A stretch of DNA of 64,000 nt. Origin: a bacterium (lineage in GTDB: Bacteria > Hydrothermota > Tepidihabitantia > SM23-42 > JAOAFX01). The position numbers and the translations under genes were made by a program. Position 1 is the first letter of the stretch. The number at the start of each line of letters is the position of its first letter. A model generated the notes under the pieces. That model was not told the DNA's origin. It made no database searches and saw only the letters and a program-made list of their open reading frames with translations. Where the stretch lies: NCBI GenBank assembly GCA_036796695.1, contig DAIRCK010000001.1, positions 128,145-192,144 of the forward strand, read 5' to 3'. This document shows positions 48,163-54,273 of the stretch, piece by piece.

Positions 48163-48711
48163 ATGAAAAAGATAATTTTATTAATTGCCCTGCCCCTTAT
48201 TCTCTCTCTGGCAGGTAGGTTCGGGGTTGGTCTGGGTGGATTTGGTGAATATGAAGAAAATTATACCCTTCAAAACTATAACCAGTTAAATAAAATGTTC
48301 TACTCTGCTGAAATTCACTTATCTGCCGAAGCCCTTCCATTTATGTTCATAGAGCCGAGTGCCTCAGTCGTGAACGATGCATTGACAAATAAAATGGTTC
48401 CTGGTGTAGGATTGAGGATAAATGTTGCGCCAAGGCTTGGTAAATTCTTTCTTGCACCTTTCTTCGGAATAGAAGGAAACATTCTATTTTATAATCCAAA
48501 AATGGAACTTAAAGATGCTGCATATTCACAGAGATTGGAAGAATATTTTGAAAACTCATCCCCAAGGGCAACCGGAACAGGATTTGGTGGTCTATCAATA
48601 TACTTTGGCAAATCTGTCTCCCTTGATTGTCATTACCGTTACCTTTATCTTGCCAAAGGAATCGGGATTGAAATGGTGGGTGGTGGTTTGACTTACTACA
48701 TCAACTGGTGA
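48163..48711 (+). CDS. Small outer-membrane beta-barrel protein (OmpW/OmpA-N-like), hypothetical.
   Basis: Signal peptide, alternating hydrophobic beta-strand pattern and an aromatic C-terminus ('LTYYINW'). Confidence 0.45.
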   Translation: MKKIILLIALPLILSLAGRFGVGLGGFGEYEENYTLQNYNQLNKMFYSAEIHLSAEALPFMFIEPSASVVNDALTNKMVPGVGLRINVAPRLGKFFLAPFFGIEGNILFYNPKMELKDAAYSQRLEEYFENSSPRATGTGFGGLSIYFGKSVSLDCHYRYLYLAKGIGIEMVGGGLTYYINW

Positions 48712-50114: not shown

Positions 50115-50370
50115 TTTATGATACAGGATGCAGGATACGAAATGAGACAATTCAAATTAAATACCCTTTTTCTCCATTATCTTTAAAAATCGTCTATCGT
50201 TGGACGGTTTTGCAGCCCGTATCGTGTATCAACAATAGGTTAAGTTAAAAAAATAACAAATAACGTTGCCTTTTATGACGAAACGGGCATCATAACCGTT
50301 CAACCCTATTTTTTACCATTTATTTGCAAGACTAAATCCTTGCCCTCCTTCTCTTTCCGTTTCACACATT

Positions 50371-50456
50371 ATCCCTTCTTCACCCTTATTTACCCCTCTT
50401 TACCCTTATTTACCCCCCTCTTCACCCCTCTTGTCGCCCTTTAGCCCTCTTGAGCC
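50371..50456 (+). repeat. Pyrimidine-rich degenerate tandem repeat tract (YYTTYACCC-like units) upstream of the repeat-protein gene.
   Basis: atcccttcttcaccc / ttatttaccc / ctctttaccc / ttatttaccc / ccctcttcaccc / ctcttgtcgccc / tttagccc / tcttgagcc. About 8 units of 8-12 nt, strongly C/T-biased on the + strand. Confidence 0.5.
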
Positions 50457-50555
50457 TTTTAAGAAATTAGAGATATCCTCTTGATAATAGAAGAATTTTA
50501 ATTATAATCTTAAATGAATCGAATTACAATTATTCTTCTAACAAAGGAGTAATAA

Positions 50556-52478
50556 ATGAAAAATTTTAGTCATACTATTTTGATTATCCTATTTACCAGT
50601 TCTGCCCTCTTTTCTGCTAATACAGAAATTGAGACAATCATAAAAAATGTAGCAAATAGAGTAAATGTTCCTGTATCAGATCTAAAGATTGAAAAAGATG
50701 ACCTTGAATTCTATGGGTATGGTAAATTCCGCACCAGGTTATTTGACCTGTTTATCAGAAATCCACTAAAGATTGACCCCTATATTAGAACCCTATCAAA
50801 AACCATCTTAAATAATGCTGATTCACTCTGGGCAATAAGTTATTTCTCCTGGGCAAGGATTGATGAAGGTGTGCGAAGGGGATTGATTGAGCGTCCAGAT
50901 GAAACTTTGATTAATTCGTTACCAAAAGGCGAAGAATTAAACCAGAAATTGATTATTCTATTACAAGACTCATACAATGCCGATACCACAGGGATTAAGG
51001 AATTGCCCGAGGCAATAAGAATCGGCATTTTTCTGATATTAACAGTAATAAAAAGTTCAATCGATTTGATACAAAAAGGGACTGAAGATTTATCAGTGAA
51101 TGATGCACAAAAAATTGTTCAACAACTTGCTGAATCTGGAGAAGATGGATTATCCAATCGCCATATTGAAACTTTGATTGAGCGGATTGATTTCAAGTTA
51201 ATTTCCGCAGGTGCAATAGATTTATCTTATGTTTTGCAGACTGTGATAGATTTGATGAGGAACGAAGAATTGAAGAAAAAAATTAAGATAGATACAAAAT
51301 TGGGTCCGGTTGTTCTTGGTTCAAAAGAAGATGACCGATACGAACCCTTCCCCTATCTTTTAATAATTGATTTTGGTGGTAATGATACATATATGTCAGG
51401 TGGTGTATCAGACAGGAAACATCCAGTTTCAATCATCATAGATTACTCAGGAAACGACGAATACAACGGTGAGACTGGTTGCGGGACAGGTATTGCAGGT
51501 ATTGGGTTTGTTATTGATTTTGAAGGAAATGATAGATATACCGCAGAAAGATTTGGTCTGGGAACAGGAATATTTGGCCAGGGTATCATTCTGGACCTTG
51601 ATGGTGATGATGAATACAAAACAGAGATCTATGGTATAGGTGCAGGGCTATTTGGCACAGGCGTTATCTCAGATCAATCAGGCAATGACAAATACATTGG
51701 ATTTCAGGGATGCCAGGGATTTGGATTTGTAAAAGGCTGTGGTCTGCTCATTGATAAAGAAGGGAATGATACATATATTGCCCGTGATGATACTATTAGA
51801 TTTCCATCGCCACAAACAAAAGAACATAATGCAAGCCTTTCCCAGGGGGCTGGTTTTGGTGTAAGGGCAGATTATACAGATGGGCATTCATTAGCTGGCG
51901 GTGTAGGAATGTTGATTGATGGGAATGGCGATGATAAATACTCCTGTGGTGTTTTTGGCCAGGGCTGTGCATACTGGTTTGGCGCAGGATTTTTAATTGA
52001 TTATAATGGGAATGATATATACAATGGGGCCTGGTATGTTCAGGGCGCAGGCGCACACTTTGCCCTTGGGGTCTTAATTGATTCTACAGGGAGCGATATA
52101 TATACTGCAACGCATAATATGGCACAGGGTGCAGGGCATGATTTTACAATTGGAATCCTCCTTGATTATGAGGGCAATGATTTACATAATGCCCCGAACT
52201 TGAGCCTTGGTGCAGGAAATGCGAATGGAATGGGATTATTCATTGACATAAAAGGCGATGACAGATATACCACACACAGCGGTATAACACTTGGTAATGC
52301 AAACACGGCAAGCCGTGGGACTATTAGGGATTATATGCGAACAATTGGAATCTTTATTGATTGCGAAGGGAAAGATATTTATTCTGAAAAATTTGCCGGT
52401 GATAAAAAGATCTGGCGTCAGAGGCCACCATTAGAACCACCATTAAAAACAGAAACAGGGATTGGTATTGATTTCTGA
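50556..52478 (+). CDS. Secreted hypothetical protein with a ~250-aa N-terminal region and ~12 degenerate ~23-aa repeats ending in [GD][ND]DxY. Predicted beta-solenoid.
   Basis: Signal peptide 'MKNFSHTILIILFTSSALFSA'. Repeats include 'IIDFGGNDTYMSG', 'IIDYSGNDEYNGE', 'VIDFEGNDRYTAE', 'ILDLDGDDEYKTE', 'ISDQSGNDKYIGF', 'LIDKEGNDTYIAR', 'LIDGNGDDKYSCG', 'LIDYNGNDIYNGA', 'LIDSTGSDIYTAT', 'LLDYEGNDLHNAP', 'FIDIKGDDRYTTH' and 'FIDCEGKDIYSEK'. Each is preceded by a G-x-G-rich segment. Confidence 0.6.
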   Translation: MKNFSHTILIILFTSSALFSANTEIETIIKNVANRVNVPVSDLKIEKDDLEFYGYGKFRTRLFDLFIRNPLKIDPYIRTLSKTILNNADSLWAISYFSWARIDEGVRRGLIERPDETLINSLPKGEELNQKLIILLQDSYNADTTGIKELPEAIRIGIFLILTVIKSSIDLIQKGTEDLSVNDAQKIVQQLAESGEDGLSNRHIETLIERIDFKLISAGAIDLSYVLQTVIDLMRNEELKKKIKIDTKLGPVVLGSKEDDRYEPFPYLLIIDFGGNDTYMSGGVSDRKHPVSIIIDYSGNDEYNGETGCGTGIAGIGFVIDFEGNDRYTAERFGLGTGIFGQGIILDLDGDDEYKTEIYGIGAGLFGTGVISDQSGNDKYIGFQGCQGFGFVKGCGLLIDKEGNDTYIARDDTIRFPSPQTKEHNASLSQGAGFGVRADYTDGHSLAGGVGMLIDGNGDDKYSCGVFGQGCAYWFGAGFLIDYNGNDIYNGAWYVQGAGAHFALGVLIDSTGSDIYTATHNMAQGAGHDFTIGILLDYEGNDLHNAPNLSLGAGNANGMGLFIDIKGDDRYTTHSGITLGNANTASRGTIRDYMRTIGIFIDCEGKDIYSEKFAGDKKIWRQRPPLEPPLKTETGIGIDF

Positions 52479-52554
52479 ATAACTAACTCCCAAATCCAAA
52501 ACATAACTGTGCTGACCCTTGACTTTAATTAAATTTTATGTTATATTAATAGTT

Positions 52555-54273
52555 ATGATATTATCTAAGGCATTGATTGAAACCTTAAGGGAAGACCCAA
52601 AGGATGCTGAGTTGAAAAGCCACAAACTCCTTGTGCGTGCGGGCTTTTTAAAACAGCACGGTGCTGGAATCCATACCTATCTGCCCTTAGCCTGGCGGGT
52701 ATTGCTAAAGATTGCAAATATCATTCGTGAAGAAATGGACCGAATAGGTTCACAGGAACTCTTAATGCCTGCCTTATCACCAAAGGAAATCTGGGAGGAA
52801 TCCGGAAGATGGAAGGATTTTGGAGATGATATGTTCAGGTTAAAAGACCGAAAGAACAGGGATTATTGCCTCTGCCCTACTCATGAAGAGGTTATTACTG
52901 AGATTGCCCGCAACTATATCAGGTCATATCGTGACCTACCACAGATATGGTATCAGATTCAAACAAAATTCAGGGACGAACCAAGGCCCCGGGGTGGCGT
53001 AATTCGTTCACGGCAATTTCTGATGAAAGACTCTTATAGTCTTGATATTGATGAGGAAGGACTGGACAGAAGTTTCAATCTACACAAAGAAGCATATTCG
53101 AGGATATTCACAAGATGCGGATTGAATTTTGTGATTGTTGATGCATCTGGTGGTCTGATGGGCACGGGTGAGTCAAAGGAATTTATGGCGATTGTAGAAG
53201 GTGGTGAAGATAGGATTGTAATGTGTCCAAAGTGTGGATACCGCTCAAATCTTGCAATTGCAGAAGGAATTGGTGAATATGTATCCTTTTCTGAAGGTAA
53301 TGTGGAAAAAGTAGCAACACCAGGTAAAAGAACGGTTGAGGAAGTAAGTCAATTTTTGAATGTAAAACCATCAAATTTGATAAAAAATATGTTTATGACT
53401 GCCCGGGATAAAGAGCCGGTTCTCATTCTGATCCGTGGTGATTATGAAATAAATGAAGAGAAACTGAAAAAAATTATTGGTAATGACTATCAACCTGCCA
53501 GTGCTGAAGAAATCCAGAAATATTTTCGTGCTGAACCCGGATTTATTGGACCTGTGGGAATATCAAATATCAAAATAATTGCTGATGATCTATTAAAAGA
53601 TACAAAGGGTATGGTTACCGGTGCCAATGAGAATGATTATCATATCAAGGGTGTGAGTATCAACCGGGATGTAAATGTAAAGAGTTATTATAATATCAGA
53701 CAGATAAAAAATGGTGATCGATGTATAAATTGTGGTAAAGAATTAAAAATAAATAGCGCCCTTGAGTTAGGACATATATTTAAATTAGGGACAAAGTATT
53801 CTGCAAGTATGGGTGCCTATTTTCTCGACCCCGAAGGAAAGGAAAAGCCGATTGTAATGGGAAGTTATGGGATAGGACTGGAAAGGATTATGGCATGTGC
53901 AGTTGAACAAAAAGGTGATGAAAAAGGGATTATCTGGCCTATCTCTATTGCACCATTTGATATTTATCTTTTAATCTTAAATCCCCAGGACCAAGGTATA
54001 AAGAAGATAAGCAATGCTGTAATTGGGTTCTTAAATGATGCAAATTTCTCAATGATTGTTGATGACCGCGATCTCTCTGCAGGAATAAAATTTAATGATG
54101 CTGACCTTATTGGTATTCCTTTGAGAATGACAATAGGACCAAAAGGGTTAAAAAACAATAAATTTGACATATCCATCAGGGAATCTGGTGAAAAGATTGA
54201 ATGTAGTTTAGAGCAAATCGTGGAAGTCTGTGCAAAATTAAAAGAAAGATTGATGGCGGGTTTAAATGTATAA
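52555..54273 (+). CDS. proS: Proline--tRNA ligase (bacterial type, with INS editing domain).
   Basis: 'LIETLREDPKDAELKSHKLLVRAGF', 'QIQTKFRDEPRPRGGVIRSRQFLMKDSYS' (motif 2) and 'MGSYGIGLERIMA' (motif 3). Start is at the internal Met 'MILSK'. Confidence 0.9.
   Translation: MILSKALIETLREDPKDAELKSHKLLVRAGFLKQHGAGIHTYLPLAWRVLLKIANIIREEMDRIGSQELLMPALSPKEIWEESGRWKDFGDDMFRLKDRKNRDYCLCPTHEEVITEIARNYIRSYRDLPQIWYQIQTKFRDEPRPRGGVIRSRQFLMKDSYSLDIDEEGLDRSFNLHKEAYSRIFTRCGLNFVIVDASGGLMGTGESKEFMAIVEGGEDRIVMCPKCGYRSNLAIAEGIGEYVSFSEGNVEKVATPGKRTVEEVSQFLNVKPSNLIKNMFMTARDKEPVLILIRGDYEINEEKLKKIIGNDYQPASAEEIQKYFRAEPGFIGPVGISNIKIIADDLLKDTKGMVTGANENDYHIKGVSINRDVNVKSYYNIRQIKNGDRCINCGKELKINSALELGHIFKLGTKYSASMGAYFLDPEGKEKPIVMGSYGIGLERIMACAVEQKGDEKGIIWPISIAPFDIYLLILNPQDQGIKKISNAVIGFLNDANFSMIVDDRDLSAGIKFNDADLIGIPLRMTIGPKGLKNNKFDISIRESGEKIECSLEQIVEVCAKLKERLMAGLNV

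Follow-up and report, generated by a model that had tools for sequence, protein, structure and literature searches.

What kind of protein is encoded by a stand-alone bacterial gene whose product consists largely of glycine- and aspartate-rich repeats, and what could such a protein do for the cell? The question is raised by a 64,000-nucleotide stretch of contig DAIRCK010000001.1 (assembly GCA_036796695.1, from a bacterium of the Hydrothermota), hereafter referred to as the window, in which one gene codes for a 70-kDa protein that an earlier note, made from the letters of the DNA, had put forward as a secreted member of a candidate novel beta-solenoid family. Regarding the kind of protein, the answer is well supported: it belongs to a large, unannotated beta-solenoid family, which is new as a family of sequences and structures, while its fold class is known. 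Regarding its role, the best explanation overall, to which we give modest rather than firm confidence, is that of an exported solenoid laddered with Ca2+ and provided with a ligand site for a polymer of the cell envelope.

The repeat array is built on a unit made of a glycine, three hydrophobic residues and the turn D-x-x-G-[N/D]-D-x-Y, which in the regular units is followed by [Q/G]-G-x-G and, further along, by G-x-G. The protein contains the strict pattern D-x(2,3)-G-[NDSG]-D-x-[YH] in 11 places, whereas 2,000 shuffled sequences have it 0.025 times on average and twice at most. The relaxed pattern D..G.D.[YH] is found 12 times, at amino acids (aa) 272, 296, 321, 347, 373, 400, 455, 482, 509, 537, 564 and 602. 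Likewise, a unit profile of 27 positions, based on alignment A3 (72 units, nine family members), detects 12 units with independent E values from 2.3e-5 to 6e-15 and scores of 10.5–41 bits, against a top score of 2.5 bits on 200 shuffled copies. The earlier count of about 12 repeats with a DxxGNDxY-type turn is therefore borne out far above chance, and the glycine-rich turn GxGxGxxG described alongside it is real as well: when the coils are stacked, the early ones read G-x-G-x-G-x-x-G-x-G and the later ones Q-G-x-G-x-x-x-G-x-G. The repeat length, by contrast, had been set too short at 22–24 residues. Since successive motifs start 24, 25, 26, 26, 27, 55, 27, 27, 28, 27 and 38 aa apart, the period is 24–28 aa, with regular coils of 26–27 residues and three longer ones of 55, 38 and 37 aa. 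The interval of 55 aa contains an insertion, which probably forms an extra, degenerate coil (R-A-D-Y-T-D-G-H-S, aa 437–445). Besides the 12 clear units there are two to three degenerate coils, and the count rises to about 14 when the degenerate first coil (aa ~254) and the truncated last strand (GIGIDF) are included.

Structure prediction gives these repeats a shape. The full-length AlphaFold2 model, made from an input alignment of 71 sequences, has a mean predicted local distance difference test score (pLDDT) of 94.0 and a predicted template modelling score (pTM) of 0.93, and the repeat domain modelled alone reaches 95.4 and 0.93, respectively. The model shows a two-domain protein, consisting of a helical domain (about 210 residues) that packs onto a beta-solenoid (about 400 residues, some 14 coils). 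The helical domain comprises 11 helices, mostly with pLDDT of at least 90, and is preceded by a low-pLDDT helix at residues 2–19, in the signal-like segment; the helical region of about 250 aa anticipated before the repeats thus ends at about aa 234. From residue 243 to residue 640 the protein is all-beta in both models, with three short strands per sequence repeat and a strand pattern that is periodic in step with the repeat. Each regular coil starts with strand 1 (G-hydrophobic-hydrophobic-hydrophobic-D), continues through the acidic turn x-x-G-[N/D]-D into strand 2 (x-Y-x...), and then passes through the turn [Q/G]-G-x-G, a short strand 3 and the turn G-x-G to the next coil. The C-terminus coincides with the last conserved solenoid strand, for which the family consensus is T-E-x-G-x-G-x-D-x. 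With at least 12 repeats of 24–28 aa, three short strands in each, and a stacking that is read from the secondary structure and the structural neighbours, the assignment of the predicted domain to the beta-solenoid fold class is well supported, and the check that could have overturned the original proposal came out in its favour.

The fold neighbours are of the same kind, albeit at a distance. Foldseek searches with the full-length and the solenoid-only models against the PDB, and against BFVD, returned no match at E ≤ 1e-3. The solenoid-only model has 22 PDB matches at E ≤ 10, almost all of them solenoid proteins and none significant. They include the antifreeze protein MpAFP, FapC, LpxD, a phage tailspike, IgA1 protease, pertactin and pectin methylesterases, in addition to gamma-carbonic anhydrase, RsaA, the curli subunit CsgA, Ag43 and ice-binding proteins.

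Searches for an established family were negative at every level. Pfam-A and NCBIfam scans of the protein gave zero families at E ≤ 10, no precomputed Pfam domain is recorded in any of the approximately 240 homologs listed, and searches of PDB sequences with the protein, with a profile of 71 sequences and with the 27-position unit profile produced chance matches only (E > 0.07). The source names of the listed homologs are all "hypothetical" or "uncharacterized", and the exact protein is already present, without a name, in public collections. Literature searches on the motif and on similar solenoids found nothing relevant, and a cultured or annotated member, sought through the clade of the Armatimonadota, was not met with, only metagenome-derived "hypothetical proteins". 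The suggestion of a novel family has accordingly withstood the Pfam-A, NCBIfam, PDB-sequence and Foldseek searches, in none of which an established repeat family was matched.

The family is large. A word-indexed search yields 952 proteins at E ≤ 1e-3, and the 120 that were listed are mostly full-length, with 39–90% identity. A profile search of 1.84 billion cluster representatives (clusters at 50% identity) retrieves 4,309 at E ≤ 1e-3 and 2,391 at E ≤ 1e-30, and nearly all of the best 150 profile matches are 590–760 aa long and match end to end. Relatives occur in 460 of 185,579 species-representative genomes. The 80 loci listed of these 460 all come from metagenome-derived assemblies, labelled as WOR-3, Hydrothermales, Stahlbacteria, Zixibacteria, Eisenbacteria, Ignavibacteria, Planctomycetales, Omnitrophota and Armatimonadota/Chthonomonadia, plus one Terriglobales. 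Identity to the window protein is 46–84% in WOR-3 (about 40% in a few metagenome-assembled genomes, MAGs, with this label), 43–56% in Hydrothermales and Stahlbacteria, about 40% in Zixibacteria and Eisenbacteria, and 36–39% in Armatimonadota. Because identity drops with taxonomic distance, the family looks to be mainly vertically inherited. The nearest relatives, together with the synteny, assign the window itself to candidate division WOR-3.

Some relatives depart from the common build. Three proteins of 946–991 aa (P0260, P0263 and P0265) are extended at the N-terminus by about 300 aa that have no Pfam match, and in three others of 771–787 aa (P0216, P0223 and P0266) the profile match begins at the start of the solenoid (around position 239), the N-terminal part being a different one of 360–400 aa, again without Pfam match. 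Ten longer relatives of 727–991 aa with extra or alternative N-terminal regions gave zero Pfam matches at E ≤ 0.01. In addition, the WOR-3 MAG JZ-2_201705_bins_215 has full-length copies on two contigs (L009, 6001–7920, 69% identity; L010, 2757–4676, 68%), which could be a true paralog pair or the product of a mixed bin.

Conservation is distributed unevenly along the protein. In an alignment of 245 sequences with 30–90% identity to the query (median 40%), the residue of the query occurs with a mean frequency of 0.12 in the signal segment, 0.25 in the helical domain, where the motifs FYGxGKFR and RIDEGVRRGLI are conserved, and 0.52 in the solenoid. Pooled over the 12 coils of these 245 relatives, the acidic turn has D1 at 94%, G4 at 99%, N/D5 at 82%, D6 at 98% and Y8 at 94%, and is preceded by three hydrophobic residues and by a glycine (position −4) at 75%. 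Beyond these repeated positions, several residues of the most conserved zone (aa 408–560), which are neither glycines nor D1, G4, D6 or Y8, are conserved in at least 93% of the relatives: N425, Q430, R437, S445, L453, Q469, Y473, W474, L480, Y494, H501 and D529. Outside the zone the same level is reached by T247, Q387, L398, R591, F600 and W620; within the zone, H424 is nearly invariant (at least 90%) and H528 is invariant in the 71-sequence alignment A1. The conserved polar and aromatic residues are specific to individual coils and concentrate at the Q-G-x-G corner of coils 6–11, a distribution that hints at a ligand site in aa 408–560. Together with the conservation between phyla and the fixed length, this coil-specific cluster argues for a specific molecular function rather than for a variable adhesin.

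The N-terminus points to export. In the query, Lys2 is followed by a hydrophobic core, and 65 of the 71 homologs have a comparable hydrophobic N-terminus (a hydrophobic 10-mer with a Kyte-Doolittle mean of at least 2.0), which supports the proposal of a secreted protein with a signal peptide; a lipobox-like motif is found in only two of the 71. The hydrophobic segment of the homologs usually comes after one to four Lys or Arg residues, and many of them have canonical n-, h- and c-regions, a pattern that fits Sec export with cleavage by signal peptidase I. Within the first 45 residues of alignment A1, many of the signal-like segments end in ...A-Q or ...G-Q, and that of the window protein in ...LFSAN. 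A glutamine after the signal peptidase I site has been described in Bacteroidota, and the A-Q and G-Q ends are reminiscent of it.

In the explanation favoured here, the carboxylates of the stacked acidic turns would line one edge of the solenoid like a ladder and hold Ca2+ ions (or another divalent cation) in a row, and the metal would rigidify and stabilise the protein after it has left the cytoplasm via the Sec pathway. N425, Q430, R437, S445, Q469, Y473, W474, Y494, H501, D529 and R591, situated in coils 6–11, would form a ligand site that binds, and perhaps modifies, a glycan or another polymer of the envelope, either on the cell surface or in the periplasm. Of the possible roles of the turns, a Ca2+ ladder is the most likely one, because the acidic turn matches the nonapeptide of the RTX proteins at G4, D6 and the hydrophobic position 8. 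On this analogy, Ca2+ binding by the acidic turns is plausible; the ligand and activity of the conserved site are speculative. Several points weigh against this explanation. Where the RTX turn begins with two glycines, the present turn has D-x, so that its conformation may differ, and the Pfam RTX model is unmatched at E ≤ 10. Every structural match is non-significant (Foldseek, E ≥ 0.8), and the genomic context gives no pointer to a glycan or other substrate. The cysteines of the family are unpaired and often replaced by Ala, Val or Ser, so that co-varying pairs, which would have given independent disulfide support for an oxidising compartment, are not seen. Finally, the assignment of the signal peptide relied on a simple measure of hydrophobicity, and a basic n-region is absent from some homologs, which makes an uncleaved membrane anchor possible.

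Other explanations differ mainly in what they make of the conserved zone. A bolder and decidedly tentative form of the favoured explanation would see here the first described member of its kind: an envelope family that many uncultivated phyla have inherited vertically and kept deeply conserved, with a three-sided solenoid of a previously unclassified architecture, stiffened by one RTX-like Ca2+ turn in each coil. Its helical cap and a site of His, Asp, Arg, Trp and Tyr in coils 6–11 would perform a new function, enzymatic or receptor-like, on a polymer of the envelope; if true, this would be a new class of solenoid enzyme or a core periplasmic factor. A new family of carbohydrate-active enzymes (a lyase, hydrolase, epimerase or esterase), built on a beta-helix like those of the pectate lyase, PL6, GH28 or AlgG families, with its active site in aa 408–560 and Ca2+ as cofactor, is rather unlikely. 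An exported beta-solenoid with an invariant cluster of His, Asp, Arg, Asn, Gln, Trp and Tyr would suit it, identities of about 40% across phyla are more usual in enzymes than in adhesins, and the weak fold matches include pectin methylesterases, AlgG, GH110 and phage pectate lyases. However, those enzyme matches have E > 4 and template modelling (TM) scores of at most 0.26, no beta-helix or carbohydrate-active enzyme family of Pfam or NCBIfam is matched at E ≤ 10, genes of glycan metabolism are not consistently adjacent in 85 loci, and the glycine-rich, three-turn coil is nearer to RTX, antifreeze and amyloid-type solenoids than to enzymes of the PbH1 type. A passive structural or adhesive surface protein (a spacer, an S-layer-like protein, an adhesin, or a protein binding ice or minerals), in which the face of the solenoid is functional and there is no specific ligand pocket, would accord with the structural neighbours: the closest fold is the ice-binding, Ca2+-bound helix of MpAFP, and adhesins, autotransporter passengers, the curli and Fap amyloids and the RsaA S-layer are among the other neighbours. 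We nevertheless hold it to be somewhat less likely still: conservation between phyla is very high and the residues are coil-specific, unlike those of fast-evolving adhesins; the gene is present in a single copy in the window; the length is fixed at about 620–720 aa with no expansion of the repeat number; and the Pfam scan of the query found no anchoring or secretion module, namely no T9SS (type IX secretion system) C-terminal domain, PEP-CTERM, autotransporter barrel or type I secretion system (T1SS) signal.

The remaining two explanations are much less probable. Several homologs have a very short hydrophobic stretch without basic n-region or clear A-x-A cleavage site, which would accord with an uncleaved signal anchor and with a protein acting on the outer face of the inner membrane within an envelope machine; this is very unlikely, as the n-, h- and c-regions of many homologs are canonical and end in A/G-Q, and the 85 loci offer no conserved partner genes for such a machine. 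Least probable of all is a diverged member of an established family, be it RTX, the hexapeptide left-handed helix, the pentapeptide repeats, chlamydial Pmp, PF13229 (Beta_helix) or DUF4097. In its favour, G4, D6 and a hydrophobic residue at position 8 recur in both the acidic turn and the RTX nonapeptide, and the top weak Foldseek matches are RTX-like proteins, yet the query has no Pfam or NCBIfam match at E ≤ 10, ten long relatives have no Pfam match at E ≤ 0.01, the family and unit profiles retrieve no RTX or MpAFP chain from the PDB, the period is 26–27 aa and not 9/18, 6/18 or 5/20, and the signal appears to be N-terminal and of the Sec type instead of a C-terminal T1SS signal.

Table. Features of the solenoid gene and of its upstream region, in coordinates of the window.
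Feature	Coordinates	Strand	Basis or remark
Pyrimidine-rich tract, degenerate ~10-nt units CCCCTCTTCA / CCCTTATTTA / CCCTTTAGCC	50337..50452	+	just 5' of the -35 box
Sigma-70-like promoter, TTGATA - 16 nt - TATAAT	50481..50508	+	consensus match and conservation
Shine-Dalgarno sequence AAAGGAG	50543..50549	+	read in the sequence; 6 nt 5' of the ATG
Coding sequence	50556..52478	+	open reading frame listing; ATG start; 640 aa and stop codon
N-terminal signal-peptide-like segment, aa 1 to ~21, MKNFSHTILIILFTSSALFSA	50556..50618	+	hydrophobicity
All-helical N-terminal domain, aa 24–234	50625..51257	+	DSSP on the AlphaFold2 model
Beta-solenoid domain, aa 243–640, ~14 coils	51282..52475	+	full-length and domain-only models
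Array of 12 repeat units, aa 270–610	51363..52385	+	regular expression, stacked repeats, unit profile
Most conserved zone, aa 408–560, including the 55-aa coil with insertion	51777..52235	+	mean frequency 0.63

The predicted promoter listed in the Table matches 11 of the 12 consensus positions and is the best site of the region. Both hexamers are identical in the window and in the close relatives L086, L088 and L015, with a spacer that is mostly kept too, and the Shine-Dalgarno sequence is invariant across the four, even though their proteins differ by 10–16%. If this promoter is used, the transcript would start near position 50515, with a 5' untranslated region of about 40 nt. The pyrimidine tract, which had been taken for an unusual repeat leader, is real and is the sole stretch of the window with at least 85% pyrimidine over 60 nt, but it would not be a leader, because it sits upstream of the conserved promoter. 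Within it, Tandem Repeats Finder reports a period of 10/20 at 50373–50432. Units of the same type (CCCCTCTTCA / CCCTTTAGCC) are present in L086 (4820–4905), L088 (4855–4905) and L015 (5825–5890) as well, and both their copy number and the intergenic length (441, 528 and 164 bp) vary among close relatives. Speculatively, units phased at about 10 bp might bend the DNA, bind a regulator or serve as an UP-like element. At the gathering threshold, Rfam has no match in the intergenic region 5' of the solenoid gene; the only Rfam match of the window at this threshold is a full-length tmRNA gene (RF00023; 912–1266, minus strand; 165.5 bits, E 1.5e-65). A further repeat of this intergenic region, the heptamer GATACAG in 2.7 copies at 50120–50138, lies directly after the stop codon of the HAD hydrolase gene, and GATACA(G/C) repeats occupy the equivalent place in L086 and L015.

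The gene is a stand-alone one, set among housekeeping genes that differ by lineage. Gene order in the close relatives runs from YmdB through a 182-aa protein without Pfam matches, PrsW (on the opposite strand), HAD hydrolase, the solenoid gene, proS, rimP and nusA to infB. Clustering of 807 flanking open reading frames from 85 loci, together with nine contigs inspected individually, disclosed no conserved operon partner, no neighbour being found in more than 17 of the 85 loci, which confirms the earlier impression that there are no obvious operon partners. The commonest neighbour, in 17 of the 85, is a divergently transcribed glutamine synthetase. The ABC transporter, SDR, HAD, EamA, SLT and M23 peptidase neighbours are each confined to sub-lineages, and other contexts include IspF/rhomboid/S8 peptidase, SLT lytic transglycosylase, S28 peptidase, MutS-MutL/Hsp70, PASTA kinase/NfeD and acetyltransferase/citrate synthase. 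A search for paralogs within the window found none.

Three observations on the neighbouring genes deserve mention. In a single sub-lineage of WOR-3, the solenoid gene and the start of a gene for a TPR and SLT lytic transglycosylase share 8 nt (L003, 9940–12162, and four other loci), an arrangement that suggests translational coupling and, being seen in 5 of the 85 loci, gives a weak hint of a link to peptidoglycan. The 182-aa reading frame of the window (48163–48711, plus strand), syntenic in close relatives and with no Pfam match on record, begins like a signal peptide and ends in aromatic residues (...YYINW), and could encode a small outer-membrane beta-barrel protein. Downstream, the mechanically called reading frame of proS starts at a TTG (52519), which adds a hydrophobic extension of 13 residues, and a promoter-like site (TTGACT, 17 nt, TATATT, with an extended -10 TG) overlaps 52519–52547, near the proS start; the true start is probably a downstream Met (MILSKALIETL..., region 52519–52560), and proS may have its own promoter rather than be co-transcribed with the solenoid gene.

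As the beta-solenoid fold class is well known, the architecture alone is not surprising. What is noteworthy is the combination of a very large family, full-length conservation of about 40% between phyla and a very confident predicted structure with absence from Pfam, NCBIfam and the PDB. On these grounds, and because all the relatives inspected are metagenome-derived, the family is a clean candidate for a new curated family, as well as a tractable object for studying the structure and biochemistry of cell envelopes in candidate phyla. By itself, the family resolves no long-standing question, nor does it overturn current understanding.

Several groups of known solenoids can be compared with the protein. 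The right-handed parallel beta-helix enzymes (the pectate lyase superfamily, PF13229, PF12708, pectin methylesterase and AlgG) likewise have three strands per coil, with coils of about 22–27 residues; secretion is common among them, and their active site lies on one face of the helix. Unlike them, the present protein has no Pfam match, with pectin methylesterase, AlgG and GH110 at the distant scores given above, and its glycine-rich turns and putative acidic ladder are not features of those families. The earlier statement that the repeats resemble neither Pmp nor hexapeptide or pentapeptide repeats also stands: chlamydial Pmp (PF02415), the hexapeptide (PF00132) and pentapeptide (PF00805) repeats and DUF4097/putative adhesin have no Pfam match at E ≤ 10, and the period of 24–28 aa is not one of 6 (18) or 5 (20). 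LpxD and gamma-carbonic anhydrase are weak Foldseek matches (E 1.6–5.7, TM at most 0.15).

The functional amyloid solenoids CsgA (PDB 8c50) and FapC (PDB 9u4u) are weak fold matches too (E 1.3–6.6, TM at most 0.23). The motif of curli is Q-x-G-x-G-N-x-A, which the Q-G-x-G and G-x-G-N-x-[A/N] turns of the query, for instance NLSLGAGNANG, resemble. Curli coils, however, have two strands and 19–23 aa, the Pfam model Curlin_rpt is unmatched, and the query is predicted to be a monomeric, two-domain globular protein and not a secreted amyloid subunit with Csg partner genes.

Closer is the RTX beta-roll (PF00353, HemolysinCabind). In its nonapeptide, GGxGxDxUx, the GGxGxD turn binds Ca2+ via backbone carbonyls and a single Asp carboxylate, and the ions bridge successive turns (PMC6891781). 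The present family has in common with it the residues at positions 4, 6 and 8 of the acidic turn, often N/D at position 5, a richness in Gly and Asp, and an apparently extracytoplasmic location, and the RTX domain of CyaA (PDB 7rah) is a weak Foldseek match (E 1.4). It differs in having one such turn per coil of 24–28 aa instead of tandem nonapeptides with 18 residues per turn, D-x instead of G-G at positions 1–2, and a hydrophobic, N-terminal signal-like segment in most members instead of a C-terminal, uncleaved T1SS signal; there are no T1SS genes nearby in the loci examined. The original contention that the repeats are unlike RTX is thus right as to the missing PF00353 match and the absence of tandem nonapeptides, but not as to the acidic turn itself.

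The best structural neighbour is region IV of MpAFP (PDB 3p4g), the adhesin of Marinomonas primoryensis, with TM scores of 0.41 on the query (TMq) and 0.50–0.53 on the target (TMt) over about 395 aligned columns; the match is non-significant (E 1.1–4.9), at 13% identity and a root-mean-square deviation of 7.5–8.2 Å, and neither the unit profile nor the family profile finds 3p4g in the PDB. Region IV of MpAFP (also MpIBP), whose repeat is xGTGNDxuxuGGxuxGxux (PMC3492233), forms a continuous roll of an atypical kind, in which Ca2+ is bound along just one side (PMC6891781). Both proteins are continuous solenoids (12–13 coils in MpAFP) with one RTX-like turn per coil, in which G-N-D precedes a hydrophobic residue. 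The coils of MpAFP are 19–21 aa long, a repeat length that the query does not show, as opposed to 26–27 aa and three strands; moreover, MpAFP is part of a T1SS adhesin of 1.5 MDa, whereas the query is a 70-kDa protein with an N-terminal signal-like segment and a helical domain. If the explanation favoured here is true, a solenoid with one RTX-like turn per three-stranded coil, delivered by Sec and not by a T1SS, would widen the known builds of Ca2+-stabilised solenoids.

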